From an uncultured Candidatus Saccharibacteria bacterium (GTDB lineage Bacteria > Patescibacteriota > UBA1384 > XYA2-FULL-43-10 > 1-14-0-10-43-13), in contig CAZIYE010000001.1 in assembly GCA_964543385.1 (NCBI GenBank), positions 480,001 to 512,000 of the forward strand: DNA of 32,000 bases, given 5' to 3'. Made by a program: the position numbers and the translations under genes. The notes beneath the pieces are model-generated. The model was not told the origin of the DNA, did not search any database, and saw only the letters and a list, made by a program, of their open reading frames with translations. Positions 5,790-26,265 of the stretch are shown piece after piece. Position 1 is the stretch's first letter, and every line of letters begins with the position of its first letter.

Positions 5790-5800
5790 AACTATAGTAG

Positions 5801-8863: not shown

Positions 8864-8869
8864 CTCTAA

Positions 8870-9913: not shown

Positions 9914-10175
9914 TAAAATACTAAGCAGTGTCTTAGCTAAAAAAGGGCTTGCTAAGGCCGCACAGGGCGCAATGGTGTGTTTTTATGCTAAGGAATGGGG
10001 AAAGGGACTATTTGAGCCTATTTCATTCCAAAATGGTACTTTGAAGATCTCCGTCTGTTCATCTCCTGCTGCTTCAGAAATTCACATAAAAGAAGCTGAG
10101 TTAATAGATTTCTTGAATAACAAACTATCAAAAAGATCAGTACGTTTCCTGAGAATCGTAGTTAAGAATAGTTAA
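9900..10175 (+). CDS. DUF721 (DciA-like) small protein (91 aa)
   Basis: GTG start overlapping the recF end. The pattern ...VLAKKGLAKAAQGAMVCFYAKEW...FQNGTLKISVCSSPAASEIHIKEAELIDFLNNKL and the position after recF match the DUF721 family as I remember it. Confidence 0.6.
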   Translation: MEKIDKILSSVLAKKGLAKAAQGAMVCFYAKEWGKGLFEPISFQNGTLKISVCSSPAASEIHIKEAELIDFLNNKLSKRSVRFLRIVVKNS

Positions 10176-10187: not shown

Positions 10188-13100
10188 CTAGAATCCGATA
10201 TGGGTCCAGGCAACTGTTTGAGGATTTTGCCATATGCCCATGCGGGTATCACTTTCACATCCGTTACCTTTTTTTGATCCACAAATACCACCGCATGAGA
10301 TTGAGTCGTTTCCTAATCTGGGCTGGCACATATTCACCGTTATCATCCCTGCTTGATCAAAATAATCTACATCTTCTTTTCGGCCTGTCATAATCTGGAT
10401 TGGATATATCGGCTCATTGTCAGTTGTATTATATTTCTCGTAATTTTGGATCCTCATCATATTTTCTATCAATTTTCTTGCCTTATTCTGAGAAGCCTCA
10501 ACCATTTTCTTTTTGAGTAGTTCGTTTATGTTGTTATTTTGCTTGATTTGTCCGCCCCATACTCCCATACCAGTTGTATCATTTATCTTTGGCTGAGGAG
10601 CTTCAATCTTTGGATAATATCCATCAGCAGTACAGTAATAGTAAATTTTTTGACCCAAAAGATATCCTGCCAAAGCTATAACTACTGCTGCTGTCCACCC
10701 CACCGGACCAAGACCAAGCAAAGGCGCGACCACGAGATTATAAACAGCCACAGTTATCAAAGGAGTCAGGGTGCCAGGGATCATTCCCAAGCTATCTTCT
10801 ACTCCCGCGATTTGCTTGTCTAAAAGCTTTTCTACTGCAATTGATACAATTTTGTATACCACTAATGTTTCCGCAGCAGTAAAAGCTTGTTTTGCTGCAT
10901 CTTTGGCTTCTGCTAAGTCAGAGATCTTATTTAATTCCATAAACTCTTTAGCGTTGCTCGACAGTTGAGCAATATCTTTCACTCTTGAAATCTCTTCATA
11001 TATCTTCCAAGACTTATAAAGATCATAACCAAGTTTAAATATTTCAAGAGACTGTCCAGCTTTAAGGCCCAGTGTTTTATCTGCCCAAGTAAAAAGCTTT
11101 GTCGTAATAACAGTAGTTAATACCCCCCCCACAGTTGGCAGAGACATAGTTGAACCATCAGCTACAATTGTATTATGTGTTGTGCTATCACCTTTAACAA
11201 TGTTATCTAGAGTTATTGATTTCAAGCCCCAGTCGCCGGTACCGACACCGACAAGAAGTCCTTTGGCCAAATCTCCACTTATTGGGAAGCCAAACCATTC
11301 CTCGGAATTATCTGAGAGGAAGTTGCTGAAGAAATCAAATCCATTACCACTTGCAAACGTTGTAAAGGCATCTTTATCTCCGGCCACAAAATCCTTAGCA
11401 AATTTTGCTACCTGGATCCATTCGTCGACATTTTTAATTGCCTCAAAATTTTTGCCTAGTAAATGGCCATTTGTAAGGCCTGTTTTAATATATCTGGCAA
11501 GGGCAGCTGCCTTTATCTCAGCATTACCCTGAAGCAGGTCTCTGGCCATGCCTGGGTAAGAGTTCTCGTCTAATTTCCAAAGAGCAATATCGAGCATCTT
11601 GAATTGGAGATTATCCAAAGAAGCTTTTCTTATTGATTTCTGTACCGTTGTTAGTAATTCTCCATTTTTGGGAGTAAAGTTTGCACCGCTTGGTTGATAA
11701 TAAGATTCTGGATTAGAAAGTCTGTCCAATCTGCCTTCTGGGTCTCCATTGTTTTTATTATATTCAGAAACACATTTATTATATTGGTCTCCACTCGCTT
11801 GGTTGGTCGATTTCTGGCAGGCCGCTGGAGCGGCTGCATTATTGCTCACAATGCTTGTATTTAACTCGTCGATCTTACTTTGCAAATTCTCCGGCGAATA
11901 ATTATATTGTTCATCAACTTGATTAGTTACTGATGTTGAAGTCGATGTTTCAGTATAATTTTTCCCCAGAGAATCGATCAAGGCATCACCGAAATTGCCG
12001 CTACCTGTTTTTGGGCAATTATCACCATTACATACCTTTCTTGTTTCCGGATTACTGTAAATACCATTAACATCAACCCAAGCCGCCCTCTGATATGCTT
12101 CGACATCAGGCGCCCCTATTATAGAAGTTTTTATGTCATCATAGGCTATGCGCATCTCTTGTGGAATTGCAGTCTTACACTCGTCGTCTCCATTTGCTGA
12201 GCAGTGACTTTTCCTTATATTGTCTATAGGAGCCATAACATAATTAACTCCTAGAGAAATCGCTGCAATTTGGAAATACTTCATATCCCCACTAACTAGA
12301 TTAGCGATATCTTCCAAAGGCATATCAACGCCGACTCTTATCTCTTTATTATTGTAATTTGCCTTAACGTTATATATAAAATCGTGAATTTTATCACTCA
12401 ATACTTCTTTACCCCATGCGACGATGTCCTCTTTAAACGATCCGTCAACATTTCCCGAAGGATTTTGGGAGATTGCGGCCTTGCAGATATTATATCGATC
12501 GTTGATCTCCTTGCTGAGGGTGGTTCTGGCCTGTTGGACTTCAGTGAGCGCAACCTTTAAATCTTCCTGCCATTTTTTATATTCGCTAGAGTTAATATAA
12601 TCATCCGTTTTTTGCCCATTCTTTGAAACAGGCTTCTGTTTTTCAAGTTCGGCAAGCTTGGCTTCTGCATTATGCAGACTAGTATCAAGCGGCGATACGG
12701 TAGGGTCCGAACTTGCTTCATTTAAACAGTCTTTTGTCTGTCCTGTCGGGCCAAAAGAAACATGAACAACGCGACTATACAATCCCGTAAAAGAAGCAGC
12801 TTTTGAAGAATCAAGCCCAAATTGGTAGTCTATTTTCTGCGCACCAATTTCCATCAAAATAGTTCCTGAGTTCATTGGATCAGCAATAATTCTTTGGAAG
12901 GTTCCCTCAGGCAAGTTTGCTCTTTCATCAAGCTGAAAAGTGAATATCTGATTTAAATGATCATATAACTTATCCCACTTCCCATACCATTCGTCTGTTG
13001 CCGAACCAGTTCGACAAACTTTTTGTCCGTCGGTTTCGATTATTTTCCCCTGGCACTTGAAAATATTATTTAAGTTCTTAACAAGAGTAAGAGCTGTCTC

Positions 13101-16100
13101 TGACTGATTTTGGTCTAAACCAAGGCTTTCTCCTATTTTGCTACCAACAAGTTTCAATCCTGTTTGTTCGCCAACTAGTTGATTGTATTTATCTGGAGTC
13201 ATACTATTCAAGCCAGCCAAGAGGTCATAAGTAGAGTTTGAGCTTATACCAAACTGTTTATCTAAATAATTCAACTGCTGATAAAACTCTATATTCCCAG
13301 AATTATTTTGTTGACTCTTGCCTGCAACAGCCAGTGCAGATTTCAGTCGATCTTTGATTTTTTGATCGATATTGTTAATTGCAGTAAGGGCCGGGCCATT
13401 TATAACCAACGATCCCCTTAAATGATTTTGAATTTGCCGTGCTTTGTATTCGGCGCCAGTATTTTTAATTTTCTTGGCATAGCTATCGCCAAAGATATCT
13501 ACCAGGGATTTCTCATCAAAAATTTCTTCACCATTATCATCAGAGAGGGGAATGTTGAAAGATAGAGCGATATTGATAGCGCGGGACCTATCAAAGGCTT
13601 CACCGAATGTTGCCCCAAAGAATGTTCCTCTTGGAAGATTCAATGATTGCTCAACTTTTGATTGTCCGAAGTTCGATACAAAATCACTAATTTTTTCGCC
13701 TTTTAGCGGGAAATAATCTAGGCCGATTAAGCTTCCAAGTATAGATCCGCCAACTTGATTTAGAGTACAGTTTCTTGATATTTGGTCTTTTGCATTAAAT
13801 ACCGATAGGACGGTCCCGGGCTTTAAATTTAGCTCCTGATCGATATAGTTAGTACTTATTCTGTATAACGATGTAAAATCACCGCCAAGGACATTGTAGA
13901 GGTCGTCGGGCCCAAATAATGATGGGTCAATGTTTAGGCCTGAAGCATCAAAAATTTTATAGTTAATTACTTTTTCTGCAACTGCTCTACCAACTAATAG
14001 TTTGTAATTGGGAACTGGTAAATTTGTGCTGTCTTTGATAAACAATTTACTTAGAATCTTTTTATCAATATTATTTTTATTGCCTATAGCATCGATAAGT
14101 TGTTGGGTTTTTTCTTTATTATTTCCAAATGCATATTGTACATTTTTATCAGTGATAAAAGACAACAGGTTATTTCTAATATCAGAGATTTGTGACTTAT
14201 CACTCGCACTGTCTGCTAATCTTTGGGCTAATTCCTCCAATATATTGCCATATCTTTGGTCTTTGTTAATCAGTGAATATCGCTGGGCTTCTTCGGGGCT
14301 TTTGAAACAATGACGACCCTTCTTGTCGTAATAACAGAAGGAGTTATTCTCTAGGCTGGTTTCATTTATCGAGAATCCATCCTGTTTAGTATAAGAAACA
14401 GGGCATTGATTGCTATCAGATGCGGTATCAGCATAAGGGTTTACAAATACATAGTCTGGGTTTAATACATCGTCGTTATATTGATCAAGCTCGCTAGGTA
14501 AGATCTTGCCGCTTACTAATTTTGTATAAATATCAAGAACATTCTTGCTTATCTTTAGATTGTTCTCGAGCAAATTTTGTTCATCGCTAGACAGATTTAC
14601 AGAGTAAAGATTCTTGTCCTTAGTAAATAGTGACTTCGTATCACCGTCTTCTAGGCCAAGAAGATTATCAATAGACAGGGCCTCTGAAAGTGCTTTTTGC
14701 CATGCCAAAACACCTCCAGATTTTAGTGCTTCGTAGTTTCCGCTACCAAGCCCTAATCGCATCATCAAGTCGCTTTCAGCAGATTTTAATGCATCGTTAA
14801 ATCCTCTATCCTTAATATTTTGAACGATACTATCAGTATTAAAACTGTTTGCATTTGTCTTGCTGCCAAATTGTTCAATTATTTTGTCTTGTTTTTGCTT
14901 CCAATTGTCTCTTGCTGAGGCAACCAATAAATCGTAATCAGGCCAGTTTTCAGCCTGCATCTGGCTCAAAACGTTTAATAATTTATTGCTACTATTAATA
15001 CCCGTTATATCGGTAGGTAATTCCCCCAGCGGCGATTTGGCTTTATTCAATTTACTTGCCAGGTAACTGTTTACTGCTTCATCAATCTTAGTTTTGTCTG
15101 CATACTTTAATAATTCTGAGGCATTTGTAGCAAAATCAGCCATTGTAGAGACCGAATTCTTTTCCTGAAAATAGAATGGTGGCATCGAAAAGACTTCCTC
15201 AATCTTAGCTTGGCCGATAGACTTGAAGAACGCGTCACTTCCCCCCATTCCTTTTTTCTCGAAATTCTCAACTAAATATAAGAGAGAGTTACTTGGTAAA
15301 CCAAGCTTTGATTCTGCCATATTGGCACCAAATGAGATAAAAAGATCAGTCGGCGATACATTACCTGCCAAGAACCCAAATATTAGAGAGGAGGCCTTAA
15401 ACGGCGAGATATTATTATTTCCTCCTCCGCTATCATTGCTAGTCAGATCCATACTATTTATTTGAGAAAGTTTAAGGGAGTCCGAAGTTGGTATCTCTCG
15501 GCCGGATATGATTTCAGAAGATATCCTAAGGAGTTCGTTGGCATTAAAGATAATAGAATTCAGTTCATCAATCTTGTTATTTGCCTCTGCCTTGGCGGTG
15601 GTGAAGTTCTTAATTGAATCTAGCTGGGTGACTATAGAGTCAATCTGGCTTGTTGCAGAACTCATTTTCTCCCACGTATTTTGTATTTTTATTGTATTTG
15701 CATCACTAGATTCAAAAACATTTTTGAGATTACTAATTAAATCATTAATTTCAGTATATGTATTCTCGAAACCTGAATCCTTGCTTGCAAAGATTTTCCA
15801 ATCACCCTTAATATCAGCCAATAATTTTTGTGCCTGATTCAATCTTGATGTATAAAATGCGATAGTACTGTTGCTAATTCTTAATTCTGGATTCGTGTTT
15901 AATAAATCTATTTTGGTTTTGTCTTCTTTGTTGATTAATTTGTTTGCAACACCTGTATATAAAATTTGTGAACCGATCCTCTTGAAGACGGGGCTATTAT
16001 TAGCTGTAGAACAACCAAAGATCCTTTGCAGGTCAAGTTTCTCGAGCCCAGCTAGCATGGACTTTTCTTCTGTCACAATAAAATCATCAGTTCGTGTTTC

Positions 16101-18608
16101 CACATTTTGGTCAGAGTATACTAGTGAATACTCAACTTTTTGTGTTATTGGAATAGCTGGTAGAGCGTTAGAAATCTTAGAACTGCCTTGAAAAATAATT
16201 TGTCCCTCTGGTGTAATTTCATAGTCTAGAGTTTTGTTTAGCTTTGGGGCACTACATTCGTTGCTTGATTTTTGAATGTTTCCACGAAGCCACTGTCGGA
16301 AAATAAATCTGCCAAATTCATCTGGATTAATATCTTGTGTTACGCCCCCTTCGATAACTCGGATTTTTTTATAACTCTGGTCTGAGCTTCCCTTTGGTGC
16401 TACGCTATCATCTGCTAGGAGCCGTGCCAGAGTGTAGATGCCGATAGTTGATAGGCTCTCATGATCACCACTTAGCGCTCCCTCCCAAGTGTCTCTAATA
16501 TCCGGTTGTTTCTCTGTTGGGCCTGGTAATTGATAAGCACCATTATTCATTGAAAAATATTTTAAACCATAGAGTGTGTCATCAAGTCTCTTCTTGCCTA
16601 CCATCGCAGCAAAATCTGCAGAATTGATTCTTTCTAGAATAAAATTATTTGCCGTGCCTGCACCAAGATTTAGGTCATTATCAATCAATCCAGGATTGTT
16701 TTTAATCAAAGTCGACCTCAATGAGCCGATTTTATCCGAGAGGTTGCCGAAGGTTACTGCTTCTTTCGGCCAAGAGTTGCCTGCTAGATTCAAATCTTTT
16801 TCGATAACTTTTGCGCCTACATAGTTAGCGAAAACATCATTTTTTGAAGTAACAAAGGCATCTAAATCACCAGCGTTCAGATTCATCTCATGTTCTAACT
16901 TTCTCTGGCCAATCTTGATGAGAGTTGATGGCAGGTCACTACCTGATAGCGAGCCAAAAGGTATTCCTAGCTTCTTCTCAATTGCTGATCGGCCGATAGT
17001 GTATTTTATTTTCTCAATGTCTGAAAGATTCTGACCAATAAATATTTCTCTTGGCAACCCTAAATAATCAGCAACATAAGTACTTCCTAGCTTCTTGAGG
17101 GTATCTTCTACATTAAATCCGGCAAAGTTCAGACTCTTCGATTCTAAGACATTACCTAACAGGGATTTTCCTAATATCTGAATTATATCTTCAAAATTAG
17201 CCTTGCTGAGATCTCCTTCATAAGAAGAGATGTCGCTATTCAAGTTGCCCAGCAAACCATTGACTGATTCGGAGGCAGCCGATTTTAGAAGACTCATCAT
17301 ATCAAATGGATCTCTCTCTCCGGATGCATTCCAGCCGTCGGTAGTTTGCCAAGCTAATTTAATTGGTTGTATCGGTTGTTTATATTTCTTTGTGCCTCCA
17401 GTGTTCTTTTTAACAACCTTCGTACACCTGATATCATCGATCTCTGATATATCTATAGCTTGCCCTTCAGCATGAGAGGACAGATTGCGTTCCTCTACAA
17501 AAGAGTCCTCCTTTTCGGTAAGGCTAGTTAGGTAGGCCTCATATTGAGCACCATTCTTATCTTCAATTTCAAGATCTGGGGTCGTTCCTTTTTGTTTGCC
17601 ACAGTCAGCGGCAGTCATTTCATCGCTACAACCTTTAGACACAGACTTTTGGCTATTAGCCAGAGTTTGTACCACAGAATCAGATTCTGTTGATTTATCC
17701 TGCCTTTGCAGAATGCGATTAACTCTTATTCTCCAGTGGCCAGCCCCACCCTGATTTTTTGGAGTAATTAGGTAGACCAAGGTTTTAAGAACCCTTACAT
17801 CAATATTCAGCGAGTCTATAGATTCTTTTAGTTTTTCTGCTAAATATGGCTTATCGTGGTTAACATAATTAATAATTCTTTCGCGCCCGATTCCTGTCAC
17901 ACAAACCAAAGTGTCTAAATCAACAGAAGGAACTTTTCCTTTTTTTAAATTATCTTCTTCATCTGCCCAAATATCTCTTATTTTATTTTCGCCAACATTC
18001 TTTCTTGCAGCTTCGGCAAGACGATTAAAAAGTTGCAGATTGTCGAATCTCTCAGTAGAGGTTAGGTTATCTCTTCCGATCTTCAAATATTTTAAATATT
18101 CAATTGGCGTCTTGAAATCTTTGTTAGATTGCAAATTTTTATCTACGATCTCTGTTTGATCCTTAGGCAAGTTTTTATATAGGGCATCAAAATCTTCATC
18201 AAAATTTGGGAGTATATTGGAAAGACAGGAAAGTGATTTCAAGGCCGCTAAATCACTTTGTTTCATAATTATTTTCTGTTCTGATGAATTTGTTAACAGA
18301 TCATCAAAAGTAATAAGGCTATCTTGATCGGAGAACTGAGCCATTGTTTCTAATAATTTCTTATATGCCAAAGAGTCGCTCAGTGTTTTTTTTACCTTAC
18401 ACTGCTGGTTATCTTTAGTTGGTATATAAGAATACTTTTTCTGATCAGCAACTTTTATTAGCAAAGGAATCTCTGGATCATAATCAATCTCTCCATCGTT
18501 GTCATCGGCTGCTTTTGCATTCAAGGCAAAAGCATATCCTGTGGATCCAAATGCGATTGATATTATCAATAAGTAAATAACAGTCTGTTTTAAAATATAT
18601 TTCAACAT
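10188..18608 (-). CDS. Giant secreted, membrane-anchored protein (about 2806 aa); last gene of the T4SS-like operon
   Basis: An uninterrupted 8.4-kb ORF. My preferred start is ATG 18608 (TAATG overlap with the upstream stop), giving the signal peptide MLKYILKQTVIYLLIISIAFGSTGYAFALNAKA/ADD. The ORF track's start is at 18641. A LAS-like SSHAEGQAID motif lies near 17450-17480. A degenerate L(G/N)LP-type motif is repeated many times. A hydrophobic hairpin (LITVAVYNLVVAPLLGLGPVGWTAAVVIALAGYLLG, about 10650-10790) precedes a Cys-containing C-terminal domain of about 150 aa. Confidence 0.85.
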   Translation of the reverse strand: MLKYILKQTVIYLLIISIAFGSTGYAFALNAKAADDNDGEIDYDPEIPLLIKVADQKKYSYIPTKDNQQCKVKKTLSDSLAYKKLLETMAQFSDQDSLITFDDLLTNSSEQKIIMKQSDLAALKSLSCLSNILPNFDEDFDALYKNLPKDQTEIVDKNLQSNKDFKTPIEYLKYLKIGRDNLTSTERFDNLQLFNRLAEAARKNVGENKIRDIWADEEDNLKKGKVPSVDLDTLVCVTGIGRERIINYVNHDKPYLAEKLKESIDSLNIDVRVLKTLVYLITPKNQGGAGHWRIRVNRILQRQDKSTESDSVVQTLANSQKSVSKGCSDEMTAADCGKQKGTTPDLEIEDKNGAQYEAYLTSLTEKEDSFVEERNLSSHAEGQAIDISEIDDIRCTKVVKKNTGGTKKYKQPIQPIKLAWQTTDGWNASGERDPFDMMSLLKSAASESVNGLLGNLNSDISSYEGDLSKANFEDIIQILGKSLLGNVLESKSLNFAGFNVEDTLKKLGSTYVADYLGLPREIFIGQNLSDIEKIKYTIGRSAIEKKLGIPFGSLSGSDLPSTLIKIGQRKLEHEMNLNAGDLDAFVTSKNDVFANYVGAKVIEKDLNLAGNSWPKEAVTFGNLSDKIGSLRSTLIKNNPGLIDNDLNLGAGTANNFILERINSADFAAMVGKKRLDDTLYGLKYFSMNNGAYQLPGPTEKQPDIRDTWEGALSGDHESLSTIGIYTLARLLADDSVAPKGSSDQSYKKIRVIEGGVTQDINPDEFGRFIFRQWLRGNIQKSSNECSAPKLNKTLDYEITPEGQIIFQGSSKISNALPAIPITQKVEYSLVYSDQNVETRTDDFIVTEEKSMLAGLEKLDLQRIFGCSTANNSPVFKRIGSQILYTGVANKLINKEDKTKIDLLNTNPELRISNSTIAFYTSRLNQAQKLLADIKGDWKIFASKDSGFENTYTEINDLISNLKNVFESSDANTIKIQNTWEKMSSATSQIDSIVTQLDSIKNFTTAKAEANNKIDELNSIIFNANELLRISSEIISGREIPTSDSLKLSQINSMDLTSNDSGGGNNNISPFKASSLIFGFLAGNVSPTDLFISFGANMAESKLGLPSNSLLYLVENFEKKGMGGSDAFFKSIGQAKIEEVFSMPPFYFQEKNSVSTMADFATNASELLKYADKTKIDEAVNSYLASKLNKAKSPLGELPTDITGINSSNKLLNVLSQMQAENWPDYDLLVASARDNWKQKQDKIIEQFGSKTNANSFNTDSIVQNIKDRGFNDALKSAESDLMMRLGLGSGNYEALKSGGVLAWQKALSEALSIDNLLGLEDGDTKSLFTKDKNLYSVNLSSDEQNLLENNLKISKNVLDIYTKLVSGKILPSELDQYNDDVLNPDYVFVNPYADTASDSNQCPVSYTKQDGFSINETSLENNSFCYYDKKGRHCFKSPEEAQRYSLINKDQRYGNILEELAQRLADSASDKSQISDIRNNLLSFITDKNVQYAFGNNKEKTQQLIDAIGNKNNIDKKILSKLFIKDSTNLPVPNYKLLVGRAVAEKVINYKIFDASGLNIDPSLFGPDDLYNVLGGDFTSLYRISTNYIDQELNLKPGTVLSVFNAKDQISRNCTLNQVGGSILGSLIGLDYFPLKGEKISDFVSNFGQSKVEQSLNLPRGTFFGATFGEAFDRSRAINIALSFNIPLSDDNGEEIFDEKSLVDIFGDSYAKKIKNTGAEYKARQIQNHLRGSLVINGPALTAINNIDQKIKDRLKSALAVAGKSQQNNSGNIEFYQQLNYLDKQFGISSNSTYDLLAGLNSMTPDKYNQLVGEQTGLKLVGSKIGESLGLDQNQSETALTLVKNLNNIFKCQGKIIETDGQKVCRTGSATDEWYGKWDKLYDHLNQIFTFQLDERANLPEGTFQRIIADPMNSGTILMEIGAQKIDYQFGLDSSKAASFTGLYSRVVHVSFGPTGQTKDCLNEASSDPTVSPLDTSLHNAEAKLAELEKQKPVSKNGQKTDDYINSSEYKKWQEDLKVALTEVQQARTTLSKEINDRYNICKAAISQNPSGNVDGSFKEDIVAWGKEVLSDKIHDFIYNVKANYNNKEIRVGVDMPLEDIANLVSGDMKYFQIAAISLGVNYVMAPIDNIRKSHCSANGDDECKTAIPQEMRIAYDDIKTSIIGAPDVEAYQRAAWVDVNGIYSNPETRKVCNGDNCPKTGSGNFGDALIDSLGKNYTETSTSTSVTNQVDEQYNYSPENLQSKIDELNTSIVSNNAAAPAACQKSTNQASGDQYNKCVSEYNKNNGDPEGRLDRLSNPESYYQPSGANFTPKNGELLTTVQKSIRKASLDNLQFKMLDIALWKLDENSYPGMARDLLQGNAEIKAAALARYIKTGLTNGHLLGKNFEAIKNVDEWIQVAKFAKDFVAGDKDAFTTFASGNGFDFFSNFLSDNSEEWFGFPISGDLAKGLLVGVGTGDWGLKSITLDNIVKGDSTTHNTIVADGSTMSLPTVGGVLTTVITTKLFTWADKTLGLKAGQSLEIFKLGYDLYKSWKIYEEISRVKDIAQLSSNAKEFMELNKISDLAEAKDAAKQAFTAAETLVVYKIVSIAVEKLLDKQIAGVEDSLGMIPGTLTPLITVAVYNLVVAPLLGLGPVGWTAAVVIALAGYLLGQKIYYYCTADGYYPKIEAPQPKINDTTGMGVWGGQIKQNNNINELLKKKMVEASQNKARKLIENMMRIQNYEKYNTTDNEPIYPIQIMTGRKEDVDYFDQAGMITVNMCQPRLGNDSISCGGICGSKKGNGCESDTRMGIWQNPQTVAWTHIGF

Positions 18609-20326
18609 TATTGTCCAAGAACTTTCTTCATATTGTTCCACAAATATTCGCCCCAGGATTTTCCTTCAGTCTGCTCATATTCAATCTTATCGAGAAGTGT
18701 TGTGGTGACGGGGACACCACAATAACTAAGCTCGAGATGCAATTGAGAATAGTCTGATATTGTAGCCACCTTACCTATAGTCTTGTCCCGAGTGACGCCG
18801 GTGCCTTCTCCGACATTCTTATCCAAGTCAACATGGGCGTATAGAATTTCATAATCACCATTTTTAATAACAATCTTCTTATGACCTGTTCCATCGTCTG
18901 AAATATTAGTGACCTGGCCGTCGAACATTGGGTAGACCAAAGTATCCTTATTAGTATAGAGGTCAACTGCATCAGCTTTACCCTGACCATAGTACATGTA
19001 TGTACTATGTCCGCTTTCATTGCTAGGCATTTCTTTTCGTAAGGGAGTGCCATAATGGAGCTCCCAATTAAACCCAGATATATTTTCTAATGGAAGTCTG
19101 GTCTTTGCTTGCATAATAGGAGATTGCTGGTCAGCTGATTCCAAAATAGATTTTACTGAAGTTATAATCTCTCGTCCAAGAACAGGGTCGTTATTTACTA
19201 AATACTGGTCGATTTTGGATGAAGTATCAGCTATTTTGTTTTTAGTTTCTTGATTTGATGATGATACATCTGTTCCGGTGGATGCTTCCAATTGCGATAG
19301 TTGCTTTTGAATATCGGAAAATGTTTGGTTATTTAATTTAGCTTTTGCCTCTTTATCACCTGATGCCATAATTGTTTTCTGAATCGCAGCGGAATCTGTA
19401 ACAGGATCCGCAGGCTTATTAAATGTTGATCCTGCTTTTCCAGTCCCAGCATCTCCTATAATGGCAGACATAATTGCAATGCCCGCTACAATGATGACAA
19501 TTGCCAAAATAATCCACGGTAAATATGGCAAGATTGCTTTCCATAGGGCAGCTAGGGCTTCTTTGGAAAACTTTTTCTTTAATTTATCAATTATCTTTTT
19601 ACGTGCTTCCTTATTTAACCAATCCAGCCAAGAAGACTTCTGCTGGTTTTGTGCTTGATCATCTTGGGATTTTTTTTGCTCAGCTGCGTCAGAATCAGCT
19701 TTCTCTTGGTCTAATCTTTCTTGATCAGGATTATTTCCATCGTTTTCCTCATTACCATCACTCTCTTCCGATTGTCGTGCTCCCATAACCTGGATCGTCA
19801 TGGAGCCAGGAGTACCGCTCTTGCTACCAATGGCAGTAATATATAAAACTCCATTCTCACACTCGGGGCTAGTTTTGATAATAAATGACTTACTTGAACC
19901 ATCCTCAGTCTGGTCACTCACTCCATGGAATACCCCGCTCACCCCACCTTCGGCTTCCCAGAAATATCCTTCATCCTCGGTAAAATCTATAGTTCCGCCT
20001 GACAAAGTAACACTCTGATTCGGGCCGACCGACGATGGACCGTCAATAATAACTACTGGTTGGATAGGAGATACAAGGGCTCCTCTCGTTACTGCAGGCG
20101 ATCCGCTTACGGCTTTTTGGCGCGCCTCACGAAGTTTTGAATTGAAGAGGTTTAGCAATTCTTGTGCCTTCTTCTTGTTTTTTATTTTTTTTAGCTGCTC
20201 ACTAAAATAGCGGCTGGCTTGTGCACTATTCCATGCGCCGCTTTTTACTTTATTTATATAAGAAGGTATTGATCTTTCTACAAACCTAATGAATTTTGCT
20301 TCTTTGTCGTCCACAAACCCCTCCAT
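18608..20326 (-). CDS. Single-pass membrane protein with C-terminal M23/LytM-like peptidase domain (about 572 aa)
   Basis: AGGTG lies 5 nt before ATG 20326 (the ORF track uses GTG 20332). A basic stretch is followed by a TM helix (LWKAILPYLPWIILAIVIIVAGIAIMSAIIG). The C-terminus VYPMFDGQVTNIS...IVIKNGDYEILYAHVD...GVTRDKTIGKV...SQLHLELSY resembles the M23 fold and its HxH-type motif. The first metal-binding motif is non-canonical. Confidence 0.6.
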   Translation of the reverse strand: MEGFVDDKEAKFIRFVERSIPSYINKVKSGAWNSAQASRYFSEQLKKIKNKKKAQELLNLFNSKLREARQKAVSGSPAVTRGALVSPIQPVVIIDGPSSVGPNQSVTLSGGTIDFTEDEGYFWEAEGGVSGVFHGVSDQTEDGSSKSFIIKTSPECENGVLYITAIGSKSGTPGSMTIQVMGARQSEESDGNEENDGNNPDQERLDQEKADSDAAEQKKSQDDQAQNQQKSSWLDWLNKEARKKIIDKLKKKFSKEALAALWKAILPYLPWIILAIVIIVAGIAIMSAIIGDAGTGKAGSTFNKPADPVTDSAAIQKTIMASGDKEAKAKLNNQTFSDIQKQLSQLEASTGTDVSSSNQETKNKIADTSSKIDQYLVNNDPVLGREIITSVKSILESADQQSPIMQAKTRLPLENISGFNWELHYGTPLRKEMPSNESGHSTYMYYGQGKADAVDLYTNKDTLVYPMFDGQVTNISDDGTGHKKIVIKNGDYEILYAHVDLDKNVGEGTGVTRDKTIGKVATISDYSQLHLELSYCGVPVTTTLLDKIEYEQTEGKSWGEYLWNNMKKVLGQ

Positions 20327-20425: not shown

Positions 20426-21688
20426 CTATTCGACATTTAATGCTCTGATCGCCTCATTATCTTGGTAAATAATGATGTTGTTATCATCGGTCAGCACTAG
20501 ATTGTGAATAAAAGTATCCCCAAGATTCTTGATAACAAAACCATTCTGCTGTCTTTTTTTTGTGTCATATTTGAATATTGATTCCTCTTTTGTATCGGGG
20601 TCATAAGTAGCCACAATAATATTTTCAGAATCCTTGCTCCAAGTAGTCTTTTTCAGTTCGGCTCTGATGTCCAGCGATTTTTTATTAGTGCCATCTTTAT
20701 CCATAATAGAAAGGATTGATTCTACTGGCCCTTCTTGGCTTTTAGAATATGTTGAATAGAGTATTTTATTGCCATCAGGGGAGAAATTAGCATCAAGCTG
20801 GTTTCCTATGTCGGCAATCTCTGATATTTTTCGTGAATAGGAATTAAATAAATAAATCTTATTCTTTTCGGTATCCTCATTGCGGGGAATTATTAAAAGC
20901 CATTCGGAGTCAGGAGACCAACGTAAAAGGGGATTATCAATTCCATAATCATTAAAATTGAGCACTCGCGTAATTTCTTTATTTGCTGCGCCAGTAAAGA
21001 TTAATGACTTCTCGCCATCTTCCGGTGCATAGTAGTATGCGATCTTAGAATTGTCTGGAGCCCAAGCGATGCTACCAATATTATTACCCCACGAATCTTC
21101 ATTTTGATTGATAAAGTCATATTTTTTCAAATCAAAAAAGGAAATGATTTCAGGCTTACGTAGCAAAGCTAGATCTTTTGTTGGAGACCAGATAATTTCA
21201 TCTATGTCTGATATTACAGGATTTGTAACGGCTCTTTCTTCGGCCAACTTTACTCTTTGTCCGACATCTGTTTTTGTGCGTACCCTATATATTGTTGTCC
21301 CATTTTGGTAATAAATATCATTAAAATCATTACCCTTATTTAAAAACTTTCCGCCGATAGAAATAGTCAGAGGATCGGGGGTTCTATCTAGGCTGATAGT
21401 AATTTTCTTAGGCATACCCCTTTTAAAATTCATTTCCTGATTTATGCCGATATATCCTCTTGCTTCAATTCTGATCATATGTAGGCCTGGAGAGATAAAA
21501 CGACGTATTAGACCAGAGTCGGGAACAGCAAAAGGCTTGCCGTCGATTGAAAATGAAGAATTAGTGGGCTCTAGCTGAATATTCATAAATGAATGAGTAA
21601 TAAACCATAGGAGCACAATCAAAGCCAGAGTAATTGCTGATATTACTAGAAATATTGAACGTGTTAATTTTTTAATTTCTTTATGCAT
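20426..21688 (-). CDS. Membrane-anchored TolB-like beta-propeller protein with PEGA-like N-domain (420 aa)
   Basis: N-terminal anchor SIFLVISAITLALIVLLWF. PEGA-like segment FSIDGKPF...PGLHMIRIEARGY. PD40/WD40-like blades recur: WSPTKDLALL, WAPDNSKIAYYY, WSPDSEWLLI, FSPDGNKILYS and WSKDSENIIVA. Confidence 0.65.
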   Translation of the reverse strand: MHKEIKKLTRSIFLVISAITLALIVLLWFITHSFMNIQLEPTNSSFSIDGKPFAVPDSGLIRRFISPGLHMIRIEARGYIGINQEMNFKRGMPKKITISLDRTPDPLTISIGGKFLNKGNDFNDIYYQNGTTIYRVRTKTDVGQRVKLAEERAVTNPVISDIDEIIWSPTKDLALLRKPEIISFFDLKKYDFINQNEDSWGNNIGSIAWAPDNSKIAYYYAPEDGEKSLIFTGAANKEITRVLNFNDYGIDNPLLRWSPDSEWLLIIPRNEDTEKNKIYLFNSYSRKISEIADIGNQLDANFSPDGNKILYSTYSKSQEGPVESILSIMDKDGTNKKSLDIRAELKKTTWSKDSENIIVATYDPDTKEESIFKYDTKKRQQNGFVIKNLGDTFIHNLVLTDDNNIIIYQDNEAIRALNVE

Positions 21689-21728: not shown

Positions 21729-23006
21729 TTAGTATTGCTCAATTCTTAAGTGAAAGTGGGCCTTGTGCTTATCCCATGCTACCATGCGCCCTGGCTTTTT
21801 ATTTTCTATAGCATAGCTATTTACTGCCGCTATAACCTCTGAGTCTTCGTAACCAATCCTTGTGGCGCCACAATTGATCAGAAGTTTACCCAGGTCTATC
21901 ATCATTTGTCTATTTGCAGCATCATAATTATTATTAGCTATAGCTGGTCTCTCCCTAACATTCATCATGTGGCCAGGTAGTAATATATCAGCGTCGATTC
22001 CTTTGGCGTGGGAGGCATGACCGTCAGCCTTTTTGCATTGCCCGCTCAATTCACCGATAACAAGTTTTGGTCTGCCGGCTTCAGCCCACTGTTTGCTAAC
22101 AGATACAAGAATATTAATTAATGACGGCTTGCCCCAATGTTCTTCTTTATCGCCGCTCTTTGTGTAATACTTTTCAAGTGCTGGAACTTCTACCCAACCG
22201 CAGGATGAGCCCTTATAACCAAGGTTAAGGTTTGTTTTGCAAAGAAGAGAATTTGGAATGAGTTTAGTAGTTACCGATGCAAGTGAGAGACAGCCATTAT
22301 TAAGTCCTTGAAAATTTTTCCATGTGCGCAATGCATATCCTGGTCCATTTGGGTTTGGGTAAGGTGCTCCCCAATTCCACCCAGGGTTTTTCGTATTCTC
22401 TGGTGCCCTATCTAGAGGAAAACCCATTTTTTTCCACTCCCTTAATCTGGCGGGGCCTCTGTTATAAAGCATTCCCGCAGCCTTCACAGTTTTTTCGTCA
22501 GCCCCGTCTGCTTTCAAACCATTATCTTCGAGATGGTATTTTATATATGCAGCTGCGGCTAATGCAGAATCAGCGAAATCGTCTGGATTACCTGTGGGCT
22601 TATCTGAATATTTTTTATAAATATTACCGGCCCACTTACCGTCAAAATCCTCAATCTGAAAAGGTCCCTTTGCATTTCCGCCTCGTGCCCAAATTCCATT
22701 AGCACCAGCAGAAGCCTTAATAGAATCACCGTGCTCTGCCATGAATATAGCTCCAAGCAAGGCAGGTTGTATCCCAACCTTGTTAGCAGCTTCCTCAATG
22801 GCCGATTGATACCCGCTAGGAGCTGCATCCCAGGACGTACAGCGTATATTGCCAAATAAATTAACAGGGTTTACGGTTTCCTTTATTCTTCCGCTCCACA
22901 GAGATGTTCCAGCTGCAGTAAAAGCGAGTGAAAGTACTGCGGCCAAACCTAAAACAGCCAGTATTATACCGGCCTGAGTAAAACCCTTGCTGTTTCTGTG
23001 AAACAT
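21729..23006 (-). CDS. Bifunctional cell-wall hydrolase: SLT-type lytic transglycosylase + LAS (MepA-like) metallo-endopeptidase (VirB1/CwlT-like role)
   Basis: N-terminal signal anchor. SLT-like motifs are AIFMAEHG (catalytic Glu candidate), GPFQI and AAAAYIKYHL...LYNRGP. C-terminal LAS motifs are GHASHAKGIDADILL (H-x(3-6)-D) and HKAHFHLRI (H-x-H), as in the MepA family. The start is ATG 23006 or GTG 23009. Confidence 0.7.
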   Translation of the reverse strand: MFHRNSKGFTQAGIILAVLGLAAVLSLAFTAAGTSLWSGRIKETVNPVNLFGNIRCTSWDAAPSGYQSAIEEAANKVGIQPALLGAIFMAEHGDSIKASAGANGIWARGGNAKGPFQIEDFDGKWAGNIYKKYSDKPTGNPDDFADSALAAAAYIKYHLEDNGLKADGADEKTVKAAGMLYNRGPARLREWKKMGFPLDRAPENTKNPGWNWGAPYPNPNGPGYALRTWKNFQGLNNGCLSLASVTTKLIPNSLLCKTNLNLGYKGSSCGWVEVPALEKYYTKSGDKEEHWGKPSLINILVSVSKQWAEAGRPKLVIGELSGQCKKADGHASHAKGIDADILLPGHMMNVRERPAIANNNYDAANRQMMIDLGKLLINCGATRIGYEDSEVIAAVNSYAIENKKPGRMVAWDKHKAHFHLRIEQY

Positions 23007-23010
23007 CACA

Positions 23011-24864
23011 TTATTGTCCTAATAATTGCTTTGGATCAGTGGTAATTATCTGATCTTCTGTATATGAAGCAACAGCCTTGAATGCAACATGATTTAATCC
23101 CGCAAAGAACAGTCCTTCCCCGACGTCGGACTCAAGAAGAAGGTATTTCTCTCCTTCGGTTAAATTAAAAGTTTCAGCTACGATATCTATTGATGCCGTT
23201 GATTGTTTCATAAGTATTTGCATTGATGAGTTGGCCACTACTGCTTTACCAAACCTACTGCCCAAGAAATCCTCAACATCTTGGCTTATTATTGTAAGGC
23301 CAAGATAATATTTTCTGGCTCTTTTTGCCAATCCATGAAGAAATTTTGCAGAATCCTCATATTGCATCATCCACCATGCTTCATCTACTATCATCAAGCG
23401 CTGCTTCATATTCATGCGGACTTTGGTCCAAATATAATCAAGAACGGTGTAGATTGCTATTGGTCTCAGCTGTTCTTCGAGATCCCTAACGGAGAAGACC
23501 ACAAAGCCGGGGTTTAATTCGAAATTCGTTGGCTGATTGTATAGATTTGCAAATGAACCCTCTACATATTTTGATAATCTTGCTCGAAGTGACCCAGTTC
23601 CTTCTAGATTAGATAAAATATTATAGAAATCTTGAAGGAGGGGAGGTTCATTTTTCTGACTTGCTGGATCGACAGTGATGTCTTTTATTGCGTATGTTTC
23701 ATAAAGAGCTTTGTCTATAATAGAATCTTCTTCAGGGCTGAGTCCGCCCGCCATCAAATTAATAAGTCCATGTAGGGAAGAAATATTTGAACGGAGAACA
23801 TCTTCTCCTGCCTCATTTGGATTGAGGGGTAGATCGAAAGGGTTGATTCTTTTGTCGGAGTTTAATGATATTTCCAGATAGCTGCCACCCACTGAATCGC
23901 AAAGAGTCTTATATTCATTCTCCGGGTCTATTACAATGACATCTGTCCCCAGCATCAAATATCGGAGCGCTTCTAGTTTCACAAAGTAAGATTTACCAGA
24001 ACCAGATTTTGCCAATACTATAGAATTAGCATTTTCCAATGAAAATCGGTCAAATATAATTAATGAGTTATTGTGTCGATTTATTCCGTACAATATCCCA
24101 TCATCCTGAGTCAATTCACTTGATGTAAAAGGAAATGTTGAAGATAGAGAAGCGGTATCGAGATTTCTAAGAACACTAATCCTATCAGACATGATCGGCA
24201 GCGTGGCAGTAAAGCCTTGCTCCATTTGGAATATTGATTGTTTTGTATAGATTAGCATTCCGCCAAGGGTTGATTCTACTTGGTCAGTTATCGTTTTTAG
24301 TTCCTCCTCTGATTTTGCGTACAGTGTGAAGTAGAGTCCAAACTGAAAAAGTCGAACCTCTCCTCTTTGAAGGACATCTCTTAATGATTCGACGTCGCCT
24401 AGCGCAGTTTCAAGCTCTGGATCCCTAGGTGAGCCTTTTTCTGCTTGAATTTGCATTGTGGATTCAAGTTTTCCTACCTGAGTTTTGAGCTCAGTCATCA
24501 CATCTTTAGATTCTAATGGGTGGATGTATAGCCCTATGTCCATTGTGATGTCATAGTTTATGATTGGAGATAGCCAGTTTGTTTCTAAAAATCGGGGGTA
24601 AGTAAAGACGAATAATGTTTTAGTAAATTGAGTGCCAACTTGGAGACTGTTTGGGCTCACAATAAATGAGGCTGGTGCAATAATATCTCCAATAGCCACA
24701 GTCCCTTTTCGGAACTGTTCTTGGAGTTTTTTGCTCTGATCCCAAAAACCGTTTTCCTTAAGCTTTTTTGATTCGACTTCCCGTTGCTGTAGGTTGGCCT
24801 GAGCCATTGATCTTGGGTCTGGTGTTTGATTTTGTCCTGCTAAAACAGGGTTATTATTGTCCAT
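23011..24864 (-). CDS. virB4: VirB4/TrbE/PrgJ-family T4SS ATPase (about 617 aa)
   Basis: N-domain pattern TKTLFVFTYPRFLETNWLSPII. Walker A is LAKSGSGKS and Walker B is RLMIVDEAW. The downstream region is ...LGLTIISQDVEDF. I prefer ATG 24864 (MDNNNPV...), which overlaps the upstream stop by 11 nt, over the TTG at 24930 in the ORF track. Confidence 0.88.
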   Translation of the reverse strand: MDNNNPVLAGQNQTPDPRSMAQANLQQREVESKKLKENGFWDQSKKLQEQFRKGTVAIGDIIAPASFIVSPNSLQVGTQFTKTLFVFTYPRFLETNWLSPIINYDITMDIGLYIHPLESKDVMTELKTQVGKLESTMQIQAEKGSPRDPELETALGDVESLRDVLQRGEVRLFQFGLYFTLYAKSEEELKTITDQVESTLGGMLIYTKQSIFQMEQGFTATLPIMSDRISVLRNLDTASLSSTFPFTSSELTQDDGILYGINRHNNSLIIFDRFSLENANSIVLAKSGSGKSYFVKLEALRYLMLGTDVIVIDPENEYKTLCDSVGGSYLEISLNSDKRINPFDLPLNPNEAGEDVLRSNISSLHGLINLMAGGLSPEEDSIIDKALYETYAIKDITVDPASQKNEPPLLQDFYNILSNLEGTGSLRARLSKYVEGSFANLYNQPTNFELNPGFVVFSVRDLEEQLRPIAIYTVLDYIWTKVRMNMKQRLMIVDEAWWMMQYEDSAKFLHGLAKRARKYYLGLTIISQDVEDFLGSRFGKAVVANSSMQILMKQSTASIDIVAETFNLTEGEKYLLLESDVGEGLFFAGLNHVAFKAVASYTEDQIITTDPKQLLGQ

Positions 24865-25825
24865 TATTTTGTATGGTTGTATTAATTGGTTGAGCAGGGG
24901 CTGATTGTATAGGCATATTATTTGTATCAACAGCCGATGGTATCTGTTGGATTTGCTGTATCAATTGGTCAGTTGTATTTGATTGTATAGTATTGTTGCC
25001 AACGACTGGTTGTGTTCCTTGCGGGGTTTGTGCTGTCTTATCGGCTTCTTGGCGTCGTCGTGAGGCGATTTGCCTTTGTTGTTCCTCTACCATGTCAGCG
25101 TTATCAATTGATTCTTGAGAATCAACTTGTTCTACCGGTTGTTGTGTATTCTCAGAAATCTCATTCCTCGCAATTATTACTGGCGCTGACAATGTCTCCG
25201 CATCGCTAACCCTTTCCTTCGCCGACTCATCAGGATTATATATCTGGTAGAAGAGCTCTATTATTTGTTCAGTAGAAAGCTGGAAGCAATGTAAGCCCAT
25301 GCTAGCCAAGCCCGAGGCAACAATACTCGCTCTTTGCCCTAGTTGGTCAGTAGATGATTTGAACTCCGTATCAGTAACTTTGATATGGTCAAACGTTTGT
25401 GTCTTGGCAAACAGACTATCAAAGACATTTAATTTTTTTATATTAATTGGATCGTAGGGGACGACTAGATAAAAGGTCTTTTTCATAATATTGGCTATTG
25501 AGATCAGTTTTGACACAAAATCAACATAATCACCAATTTGCATTTTTATAAGTTCATTGATGCTTTTTTCAGAGGCCCTTTTTATTTTTTCAAGATAGGG
25601 ATTCAAGTCTAATCGTCTCGATCTAATAACAATTTCAACAGGGAAGTGTAGAGAATTAAGAAAACTCTGATATTGAAATATAAGTGAGTTTTGTTCTTGT
25701 TCACTTTTCAATGCAAAATTTACGGCAGATACTTCTAAAATCATGCGGTAACTACCATCTTTCAATATCATTATACCGTCTTTGATACCGGCTATAGGAA
25801 CAGATTGTTGGGTCGATAATGCCAT
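24854..25825 (-). CDS. VirB4 N-terminal-domain-like protein lacking an NTPase domain, with a Q/T/N-rich disordered tail (323 aa)
   Basis: SVPIAGIKDGIMILKDGSYRMILEVSAVNFALKSEQEQNSLIFQYQSFLNSLHFPVEIVIRSRRLDLNPYL resembles the N-terminus of Firmicutes-type VirB4 proteins as I remember them. No Walker motifs are present. The C-terminal roughly 110 aa are Q/T/N-rich and low in complexity. Confidence 0.45.
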   Translation of the reverse strand: MALSTQQSVPIAGIKDGIMILKDGSYRMILEVSAVNFALKSEQEQNSLIFQYQSFLNSLHFPVEIVIRSRRLDLNPYLEKIKRASEKSINELIKMQIGDYVDFVSKLISIANIMKKTFYLVVPYDPINIKKLNVFDSLFAKTQTFDHIKVTDTEFKSSTDQLGQRASIVASGLASMGLHCFQLSTEQIIELFYQIYNPDESAKERVSDAETLSAPVIIARNEISENTQQPVEQVDSQESIDNADMVEEQQRQIASRRRQEADKTAQTPQGTQPVVGNNTIQSNTTDQLIQQIQQIPSAVDTNNMPIQSAPAQPINTTIQNNGQ

Positions 25826-25842
25826 ATATTAACTTTAAATAA

Positions 25843-26265
25843 TTATTTTCTAATTAGCGGGCTGTTGTCACCCGAGTCGGATTTTTTAGCCAGGATGTCT
25901 ATTTGTGATTGACTAATGTTCTTATGTTGGATTTTTTGTTCGTTACTTTTTTCAACATGATAAATTTCTATATTTAAATTACTACCTAGGCTTTGATGCC
26001 AGAACCTTCTCTTTGGTGTAGCGGCATATTCTATGGCAGAAATAAAGAAATCTAAAAATGGTCTCTCATTTACTTTGACGAAATCAAGACAAACAACAAA
26101 AAGTGCTATAGGGGCAATTAAAAAGTATGACGCCGGACGAGGCAAGCTCATATAGATGGCATAGCATGTGCCAAATCCAACTACCGCATAAACAAACTGG
26201 ATCATTGTTAATGGTCCTAAAATGCGATCCTGCATATCTATATTTTGTGGAACTTTAAATTGCAA
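25843..26265 (-). CDS. PrgI/VirB3-like small membrane protein (140 aa)
   Basis: TTG start preceded by a strong GGAGGGG at 5-nt spacing. (M)QFKVPQNIDMQDRILGPLTMIQFVYAVVGFG... followed by two hydrophobic helices matches the PrgI-family pattern. Its position upstream of VirB4 is typical. Confidence 0.6.
   Translation of the reverse strand: MQFKVPQNIDMQDRILGPLTMIQFVYAVVGFGTCYAIYMSLPRPASYFLIAPIALFVVCLDFVKVNERPFLDFFISAIEYAATPKRRFWHQSLGSNLNIEIYHVEKSNEQKIQHKNISQSQIDILAKKSDSGDNSPLIRK

Follow-up and report, generated by a model that had tools for sequence, protein, structure and literature searches.

A Giant Protein with Predicted Export Signal and Membrane Hairpin Closes the Origin-Proximal Type IV Secretion System-like Operon of Berkelbacteria-Type Patescibacteria

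Introduction

Patescibacteria account for a large part of the bacterial diversity that has escaped cultivation, and a life on other cells is assumed for them. We describe here a gene coding for a giant protein of 2806 amino acids (aa), which closes a type IV secretion system (T4SS)-like operon in a stretch of 32,000 nucleotides from an uncultured Patescibacterial genome (contig CAZIYE010000001.1, positions 480,001 to 512,000; this whole stretch is called the window hereafter), and whose family is an obvious candidate for the extracellular part of the machine.

The Patescibacterial T4SS, placed beside dnaA, was described by Quinonero-Coronel et al. (2025), who found few VirB8- and VirB1-like parts in its clusters and detected no PrgB-like adhesin there; the giant protein is not mentioned (PMC12102498). 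Southlakia epibionticum, the one member of the phylum studied by genetic tests, cannot grow as an epibiont without its T4SS-like cluster, which is essential (Wang et al. 2023, PMC10633639). The operon of this organism reads recF, 0004, 0005 (PEGA), 0006 (lysozyme-like), 0007, 0008 (VirB4), 0009, 0010 (PrgI) onward (PMC10633639), without a giant terminal gene. One of its products, the saccharibacterial protein SEML1_0007, is essential and counts 1114 aa; a Hedgehog/DD-peptidase fold was assigned to its residues 951-1105, and the proteins closest to it in structure are named “Peptidase M15B/M23 domain-containing” (PMC10633639, supplement). Like the giant protein, SEML1_0007 is large, otherwise unannotated, and encoded in a homologous origin-proximal T4SS operon; it differs by its contiguous C-terminal peptidase domain and by the position of its gene, between virB4 and the lysozyme-like gene, whereas the giant gene stands last in its operon. 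Since a large LAS-peptidase protein is essential in the Southlakia T4SS, this parallel makes a peptidase-like role plausible for the giant family.

In monoderm conjugation systems, the outside and wall-opening role is covered by surface adhesins and by membrane-anchored VirB1-like hydrolases, such as PrgK of pCF10, TraG of pIP501, and CwlT of ICEBs1. The peptidoglycan-cleaving domains of the VirB1-like hydrolases of monoderm T4SSs open the wall for the machine (PMC12102498). These hydrolases resemble the giant protein in being encoded in a T4SS operon and exported or membrane-anchored; they are, however, proteins of a few hundred residues with SLT, CHAP, or LytM domains, against 2806 aa and an M15-type motif only in the giant protein, the operon of which already contains two ordinary hydrolases.

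Very large components are found in diderm T4SSs, as is the case for CagY/VirB10 of Helicobacter. The “extended VirB6” proteins are another enlarged T4SS component, with large hydrophilic repeat regions (PMC12857230). The giant protein shares with both a lineage-specific enlargement and hydrophilic repeat regions, but has no VirB10 homology according to Pfam. We rejected its assignment to VirB6/TrbL: it has two hydrophobic helices where at least five are expected and no Pfam match, and a separate TrbL_3-like gene is present in the window (Table 1).

Results and Discussion

The Giant Gene and Its Family

The giant gene lies in one unbroken open reading frame (ORF) on the (−) strand, 10188..18641, counting 2817 aa from a GTG; read from ATG 18608, where the database copy of the protein (P0001) likewise begins, it gives a product of 2806 aa and ends on a TAG stop codon. 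The mature protein is of about 306 kDa, with an isoelectric point of 5.1. The TAA stop codon of the upstream M23 peptidase gene (18610-18608) shares its last A with this ATG, and the resulting TAATG overlap, from which a first-pass annotation of the window had deduced a coupling of the two genes, is seen in the sequence.

An ORF of such unusual length may by itself suggest an artefact, i.e., several genes joined by a sequencing or assembly error, or a decaying pseudogene. The identical 2806-aa protein is, however, encoded by six independent contigs, of which one measures 671 kb, from separate sequencing runs; dozens of genomes have full-length homologues of 2400-3300 aa that are collinear with it; and the conserved N- and C-terminal modules described below occur together in 145 of the 169 large family members. 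The artefact reading, which keeps practically no credence, is refuted by these three observations. Because the ORF is identical on six contigs and its full-length homologues are collinear, frameshift and fusion are excluded: this is one intact, real, and conserved gene, and the single ORF of the first-pass annotation, which had named frameshifts and a break-up into several genes as what could undo it, holds.

A word-indexed search returned 62 homologues of 1762-3160 aa, collinear with the query from end to end at identities down to about 26-30%, all of them unnamed or “hypothetical”, in assemblies of Berkelbacteria and “Patescibacteria group”. With residues 225-730 as the query, an exhaustive HMMER search gave 241 cluster representatives (clusters being defined at 50% identity) at E ≤ 0.001, 159 of which at E ≤ 1e-30; the complete members of this superfamily are 1288-3282 aa long (median, 2512). 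No family had been recognised for more than 95% of the protein on first reading, and the databases agree: whole-protein searches gave no Pfam, NCBIfam, or PDB sequence match, PHROGs gave insignificant matches only, of unknown function, and PDB profile searches with the family alignments were negative. Nor was a description of the giant family found in the literature searched.

Genomic Context and Synteny

The window belongs to the region around the replication origin of a small Patescibacterial chromosome, with dnaA, dnaN, recF, and a DciA-like ORF at 5992-10175, and yidC, a PilB-type ATPase, and a pilin array further left. The giant gene closes a tightly packed (−) strand operon, which encodes in order a 692-aa protein, a TrbL_3/VirB6-like protein of 874 aa, a 272-aa protein, PrgI/VirB3, a TraC-like (TrsD-type) protein, VirB4, an SLT+M74 hydrolase, a TolB-like beta-propeller, an M23 peptidase, and, finally, the giant protein. 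The giant gene is on the same strand as virB4 and within 20 coding sequences of it, accompanied by PrgI/VirB3, TrsD/TraC-like, and VirB6-like genes, as expected in a Patescibacterial (MPF-FATA-like) T4SS cluster.

For a scan at the species level, we took one genome per GTDB species, i.e., 32 loci, eight of which have truncated upstream DNA, and searched them by tblastn with the window proteins. VirB4 and the beta-propeller gene are found upstream of the giant gene in all 24 loci whose upstream DNA extends over 5.6 kb or more, and on its strand in 23 of these 24 informative loci. The giant homologue ends the same operon and directly adjoins DciA/recF/dnaN/dnaA in two cases (P0024 and P0039); it ends the same operon, with the origin genes a few genes away, in two others (P0059 and P0062, the latter being the most distant homologue of the first search). 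The same operon-terminal placement is found for the remote members P0104 (2095 aa) and P0121 (1405 aa), which only the exhaustive search had detected. On this sequence evidence, we consider the link of the giant gene to the T4SS operon as firmly supported; the first-pass statement that it is the terminal gene of a T4SS-like operon now extends to the 24 informative species loci and to two remote homologues, and homologues lying mostly away from T4SS genes, which would have spoken against it, are not what these loci contain.

One could still think of a protein of the cell envelope with no part in secretion, such as a scaffold for wall remodelling or division, that merely shares a highly expressed origin-proximal neighbourhood. 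Housekeeping genes (yidC, rnpA, dnaA, dnaN) do cluster at the origin region, and the peptidase-like motif of the giant protein would fit wall maintenance too. We nevertheless hold this explanation to be very improbable, given the shared strand, the minimal or negative intergenic gaps, and the translational coupling with the T4SS operon, as well as the co-occurrence of VirB4 in every informative locus, with homologues down to about 23-26% identity.

Export Signal and Membrane Hairpin

The N-terminus of the giant protein, MLKYILKQTVIYLLIISIAFGSTGYAFALNAKA followed by ADD, has the basic n-region, the hydrophobic core, and the A-x-A at positions −3/−1 of the canonical signal peptide already read there on first pass (AKA/ADD), and in nearly all full-length homologues, an A-x-A-like site comes after a hydrophobic segment at the N-terminus. 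Kyte-Doolittle hydropathy (19-aa window, threshold 1.5, with a second pass at threshold 1.6 and peak-splitting) gives two hydrophobic segments only, 2-31 and 2609-2644, the second reaching residue 2651 at threshold 1.6. The first-pass estimate of some 2500 aa free of hydrophobic segments becomes about 2570 residues between the signal peptide and the hairpin, and the hairpin itself, first placed near 10650-10790, is found by hydropathy at the position given in Table 1. Its two helices, LTPLITVAVYNLVVAPLLGL and WTAAVVIALAGYLLGQ, are joined by a G/P turn (GPVG), and the hydrophobic stretch keeps its position across the family, 117-196 aa before the C-terminus.

By sequence and hydropathy, the query and nearly all its homologues have the traits of a Sec-exported protein anchored by a C-terminal hairpin, and we predict the giant protein to be an exported, hairpin-anchored membrane protein. 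Export, anchoring, and operon membership are the only parts of our reading that rest on direct sequence evidence, and it is, in our judgement, likely that the protein is a T4SS-associated, exported, and membrane-anchored component. We regard it as a conserved, lineage-specific component of the T4SS-like machine that Berkelbacteria-type Patescibacteria encode near the origin of their chromosome, the family being a lineage-specific giant component of the already known Patescibacterial T4SS.

Conserved Modules at Both Ends

Conservation along the query is highest at residues 250-700 and in the last 150 residues or so. The N-terminal module (N-module) has as landmarks D270xR272, GGAGH291, S377xHxxGxAxD386, DDIRC395T, and KLAWQ421T. 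The spacing between GGxG and SxH is about 36 residues in remote members against 86 in the query; residues ~300-375 are, therefore, a lineage-specific insertion. This insertion has its own pair of cysteines (C-x3-MTAA-x-CG, residues 327-336, ~17601-17630), which is kept in the relatives bearing the insertion and absent in the remote members without it. In the minimal homologue P0182, residues 100-1288 (1189 aa) contain both the N-terminal and the C-terminal module.

The C-terminal module (C-module) begins four residues past the second hydrophobic helix with C2659-[TS]-ADGYYP (CTADGYYP in the query), continues with an AAQYKA-type helix, PxQIMTGRxED, C2761, and C2784, and ends with R-x-G2791-x-W-x-N-P-Q-T-x-x-x-T-H2803-I-G-F-COOH (…WTHIGF). 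The Cys-containing end domain of the first-pass annotation is there, with the Cys-bearing stretch CQPRLGNDSISCGGICGSKKGNGCESD at residues 2761-2787, within the last 150 aa; its cysteines are less general than this name suggests, three out of five (C2659, C2761, and C2784) being conserved among the 62-member family and none across the superfamily. In a superfamily sample of 40 sequences, D270, G288, G290, Q421, G2791, and H2803 are invariant, and R272, H379, A384, D386, and D391 are conserved at 90% or more. The C-termini of remote members read WDHIHIGF, VDHVHVGY, WDHLHVAW, and the like; Tyr replaces the C-terminal His in about ten of the C-termini listed and in 6 of the 146 sequences of the scored set.

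VanX, VanY, and other M15-type LAS peptidases, which are zinc D,D- or L,D-peptidases with the Hedgehog/DD-peptidase fold, have SxHxxGxAxD as their H-x6-D zinc-ligand motif. The giant protein has this motif in its N-module, with H379 and D386 in the H-x(3-6)-D arrangement and in the SxHxxGxAxD context of M15 enzymes, and the G-x(11-12)-H-hydrophobic-x-aromatic pattern at its C-terminus resembles their third-ligand motif, WGG...DxxHF. In other lineages, the hydrolase slot of this operon is filled by genuine Peptidase_M15_4/VanY enzymes, for example at 5713-6879 of locus L003 ('...NSSSHAFGLAIDIN...DPMHFQYGGNWQ*'). With hhalign, only the motif of the N-module aligned with the operon M15_4 enzyme (P = 0.0065, 0.00077, and 0.002 with three profile versions), and the last 45 residues aligned G..W...HIGF on WG..F..DPMHFQY, His on His (P = 0.04); these tests had one to five operon hydrolases as reference and little power. 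The window's own M74 hydrolase gave no hhalign signal with the N-module and was dropped. In word-indexed searches, the N-module profile returned four fragments only and the M15_4 hydrolase domain nothing.

A protein of 549 aa encoded just upstream of the giant gene in locus L014 (~7617-9260, + strand) has SQHMTGDAMD and, after 57 aa, KHNHIHIGF contiguously, with a weak M15_4 match (E = 0.037). It resembles an unsplit form of the terminal motifs of the giant protein and links canonical M15_4 enzymes to the two separate motifs of the latter. We put forward, as a tentative proposal, that the N- and C-terminal residues of the giant protein build a composite M15-like metal site.

In a remote clade of proteins of ~2850-3280 aa (P0062, P0151, P0156, P0168, P0170, P0175, P0176, and P0181), H-x6-D has decayed: M, L, I, or Q stands in place of D386, and Tyr frequently in place of the C-terminal His. 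Should the metal site be real, this clade may be a pseudo-enzyme branch.

The Middle of the Protein

Residues 504-730 contain tandem copies of a 20-residue motif, IGxxxIExxLGLPxGsf (consensus IGQAKIEKELGLPRGSFDGY), copies of which, traced with a repeat hidden Markov model, are found in most superfamily members, with a median of four. In an AlphaFold2 (AF2) model of residues 225-730, this region has a predicted local distance difference test (pLDDT) of 70-90, with 59% helix and no strand, which is consistent with an array of helical hairpins. Further motif copies are dispersed in the rest of the body at 1094, 1131, 1588, and 1648, with weak ones at 1895, 1921, and 2603, the last directly preceding the hairpin; conservation of residues 731-2612 is moderate, with variable low-complexity stretches.

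Do the Two Ends Meet?

Covariation between the two modules was scored over about 130 sequences for cysteines and about 146 for histidines. Cys395 and Cys2659 are present together in 91 sequences and absent together in 28, with 11 discordant cases; nine of the latter come from one clade, which has a remodelled C-module start and the C-side Cys only, and the other two, with the N-side Cys only, are doubtful alignments. When only the 116 sequences that keep xDGYYP are considered, the counts are 90, 25, and one, respectively. Among 52 N-module columns, C395 correlates best with C2659, which in turn ranks second among 54 C-module columns for C395, and the pair was jointly lost in at least three separate lineages of a neighbour-joining tree built from an independent region; the raw Fisher P of 2e-18 is uncorrected for phylogeny and, thus, is no contact probability. 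For H379 and the C-terminal His, 138 sequences have both, four (from two lineages) have lost both, and four are discordant, D386 being likewise lost in one of the two lineages with double His loss.

From these counts, we put the chances at about even that the N- and C-modules are in contact, probably through a disulfide. Such a contact, if real, would place both modules on the same side of the membrane, which supports the hairpin topology, and would turn the ~2200-residue middle into a closed loop, not a free fibre. The body tethered by its C-terminus in the first-pass picture is, therefore, probably not a free fibre, as the covariation of Cys395 and Cys2659 suggests that the N-module is tied back to the C-module.

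The same evidence bears on what remains of the initial proposal of an adhesin, fibre, substrate, or effector. The presence of a Sec signal peptide speaks against a substrate of the classical T4SS type. A surface fibre or adhesin would have a C-terminal anchor, a helical stalk, and the N-module as a free distal head binding, and perhaps cutting, the host wall; it would stand in for the PrgB-type adhesins missing from Patescibacterial T4SS clusters, in which none was detected (PMC12102498), and it agrees with the signal peptide, the long non-hydrophobic body, the C-terminal anchor, and the position of the most conserved module near the N-terminus. PrgB-type adhesins are, like the giant protein, large, exported, and T4SS-encoded, and could mediate cell-cell contact. 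The giant protein differs from them in having no adhesin or Ig-like domain and no LPXTG, which is also absent from all 169 family members scanned, and in being mainly helical where modelled and anchored by a hairpin; membership in the PrgB-like adhesins was rejected, there being neither LPXTG nor Pfam domains. Moreover, the N-module is the slowest-evolving part of the protein, whereas adhesin heads usually evolve fast, and the covariation of Cys395 with Cys2659 suggests that this module is kept close to the membrane, at the C-module. We keep the fibre or adhesin as a rival, albeit an unlikely one.

Proposed Mechanism

The reading that we prefer, and for which the arguments on either side seem to us balanced, is that of an extracytoplasmic, hairpin-anchored T4SS scaffold and wall-opening arm, the two ends of which form an M15-like module. 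As the sequence shows, the giant protein is the last product, by coupled translation, of the PrgI/TraC-like/VirB4/hydrolase/beta-propeller/M23 operon, and it has a Sec-type signal. After export and cleavage, about 2570 residues would lie outside the cell, the two hydrophobic helices (~2613-2655) would enter the membrane as a hairpin, and the last 150 residues would also be outside. On the outer face of the membrane, the N-module (262-425, with D270, R272, H379, and D386) may pack on the C-module (G2791 and H2803), as covariation and motifs suggest, the two being probably stapled by a Cys395-Cys2659 disulfide. The joined modules would resemble an M15/VanY-type (LAS) zinc peptidase, with the H-x6-D half at the N-terminus and the half with the last His at the C-terminus, while the ~2200-residue middle, largely made of helical hairpins with IGxxxIExxLGLPxGsf, would form a giant closed loop or arm projecting through the cell's own wall toward the host. 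The protein could, thus, serve the T4SS as its outside scaffold and wall-opening arm.

The enzymatic part of this reading we hold to be less probable than not: an M15-like fold assembled from an N-half (R272, H379, and D386) and a C-half (G2791 and H2803), stapled by a disulfide and with the loop inserted between them. If true, a small enzyme fold would here, quite unusually, have an interruption of more than 2000 residues; the loop would give the Patescibacterial T4SS its long-sought extracellular reach, and would connect the local cleavage of the wall, where epibiont and host meet, with the secretion channel. The family is giant, exported, strictly linked to the T4SS, slow-evolving at both ends, and comprises 241 clusters; for an entire branch of the phylum, it may supply the missing outside part of a machine on which related bacteria depend for life on their hosts. 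It also offers residues as targets, namely H379, D386, H2803, and the Cys395-Cys2659 pair.

Several points weigh against this reading. Participation of the giant protein in the machine is read from gene linkage and translational coupling only, and its topology from hydropathy and the cysteine argument. The cysteine statistic is confounded by phylogeny, many N/C column pairs being equally correlated, and it has its discordant clade of nine sequences; the histidine pair has its four discordant cases as well. As for the enzyme, one has to keep in mind that the similarity to the M15 motif spans 16-18 residues only. The third-ligand His (DxxH, ExxH, or HxH) that M15 enzymes have some tens of residues downstream in the same domain was not found, there being no conserved His between 386 and 2802; the sole candidate is H2803 at the far C-terminus, a hypothetical placement that departs from the M15 family architecture. 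The two motifs are separated by 2416 residues and a membrane hairpin. The giant protein has no profile or fold match to M15/VanY: Pfam M15 families were absent in 19 members even at E ≤ 10, the PDB profile searches were negative, as mentioned above, and Foldseek with the N-module model against PDB and BFVD gave best E-values of 0.88 and 0.82. This AF2 model, built from 46 sequences, has a mean pLDDT of 69.8, with 83-97 for residues 268-297 and 388-417, but only about 48-63 for the SxH segment; in the model of residues 225-730, built from 19 sequences, the conserved module has a pLDDT below 50, and Foldseek found no meaningful match. Finally, no other peptidase is known to us in which ~2400 residues and a membrane hairpin interrupt the domain.

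A last alternative comes from the general build of the protein. Phage tape-measure proteins, such as pb2 of T5, unite a muralytic domain and a hydrophobic hairpin with a long body of helices, and the giant protein recalls T5 pb2 by its length, helices, hydrophobic hairpin, and wall-cleaving motif. It could, in that case, be a released translocator or conduit, comparable also to the translocators of type III secretion systems, whose hairpin inserts into the host membrane to form a channel for the uptake or delivery of macromolecules by the epibiont. The long helical protein with its peptidase-like motif and single hydrophobic hairpin would suit this role, as would a cluster that has no coupling protein or relaxase and whose substrate is unknown (PMC10633639, PMC12102498). 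A Sec-exported protein with two helices would, however, normally remain in the membrane of its producer, and there is neither a PHROG tape-measure match nor a phage gene nearby; we consider such a conduit improbable. A phage tape-measure protein proper was rejected in view of the insignificant PHROGs matches, the T4SS and replication genes as neighbours, and the Sec signal.

Other Features of the Origin Region

The coordinates of the giant gene, of its parts, and of the T4SS genes of the window are collected in Table 1.

Table 1. Features of the giant gene and of the upstream operon (positions in the window).
Feature	Position	Strand	Remarks
Giant gene	10188..18608	(−)	2806 codons + TAG
Sec-type signal peptide, residues 1-33	18510..18608	(−)	Predicted cleavage AKA/ADD
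N-module (N-dom), residues 262-425	17334..17825	(−)	Delimited by conservation
SSHAEGQAID, residues 377-386	17451..17480	(−)	Matches SxHxxGxAxD (H-x6-D) of M15/VanY-type LAS peptidases
Helical-hairpin region, residues 504-730	16419..17099	(−)	Four tandem 20-aa motifs at 507, 538, 566, and 597
Rest of body, residues 731-2612	10773..16418	(−)	Without hydrophobic segments; dispersed motif copies
Two-helix hydrophobic hairpin, residues ~2613-2655	10644..10772	(−)	From hydropathy; LTPLITVAVYNLVVAPLLGL-GPVG-WTAAVVIALAGYLLGQ
C-module (C-dom), residues 2656-2806	10191..10643	(−)	Delimited by conservation
Upstream 574-aa gene, C-terminal Peptidase_M23, central hydrophobic segment	18608..20332	(−)	Translationally coupled to the giant gene
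TolB/PD40-like beta-propeller protein	20426..21688	(−)	Upstream of the giant gene in 31 of 36 comparison loci; missing from short or upstream-truncated ones
Cell-wall hydrolase, SLT-like + Peptidase_M74	21729..23009	(−)	VirB1-type function
T4SS core	23011..26265	(−)	PrgI/VirB3-like + TraC-like piece + VirB4
PrgI/VirB3-like	25843-26265	(−)	
TraC-like/TrsD-type N-terminal piece	24854-25825	(−)	
VirB4 P-loop ATPase	23011-24930	(−)	
874-aa protein	27168..29792	(−)	Homologous to the TrbL_3 (VirB6-like) gene of locus L001

Within the operon, the TraC-like (TrsD-type) ORF of 323 aa is separate from virB4 and overlaps it by 77 nt (23011-25825, (−) strand for the two), a split two-gene layout that is repeated in all comparison loci. 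The slot that follows virB4, filled by an SLT+M74 hydrolase in the window (21729-23009), holds an enzyme whose type varies by lineage (loci L001, L003, L005, L006, L041, and L042): elsewhere, it is SLT+Amidase_2, Peptidase_M15_4, Peptidase_C39_2, or YkuD, which suggests that the slot was swapped repeatedly, perhaps following the wall chemistry of the host. The M23 protein has an acidic low-complexity middle, then a strongly hydrophobic segment (…LPWIILAIVIIVAGIAIMSAIIG…) before its M23 domain; the corresponding slot of other lineages encodes proteins of 412-617 aa, either without Pfam matches or with Peptidase_C39_2/C70. The beta-propeller protein is a candidate partner of the giant protein.

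Small genes with 23S_rRNA_IVP or bAvd matches, which are four-helix-bundle proteins, are found in or near the T4SS operon at 6450-6812 of L001 and from 27436 in L003. On the other side of the giant gene, the DciA-like ORF of 91 aa (9900-10175, + strand) is convergent with it, at a distance of 12 nt, and no intrinsic terminator was detected in this gap or after the stop codon of the giant gene.

The dnaA-dnaN intergenic region (7430-7728, G+C fraction of about 0.30) has a cluster of seven DnaA-box-like sites (TTATCCACA, at most one mismatch), and the whole window contains 24 such sites against a chance expectation of about 10; judging from its sequence, this region is probably oriC. Five tandem divergent T4SS pilin genes (248-2115, + strand; PF18895, weak TrbC/VirB2) lie on the opposite side of the origin region from the T4SS operon, and match the “VirB2 arrays” reported for Patescibacteria (PMC12102498).

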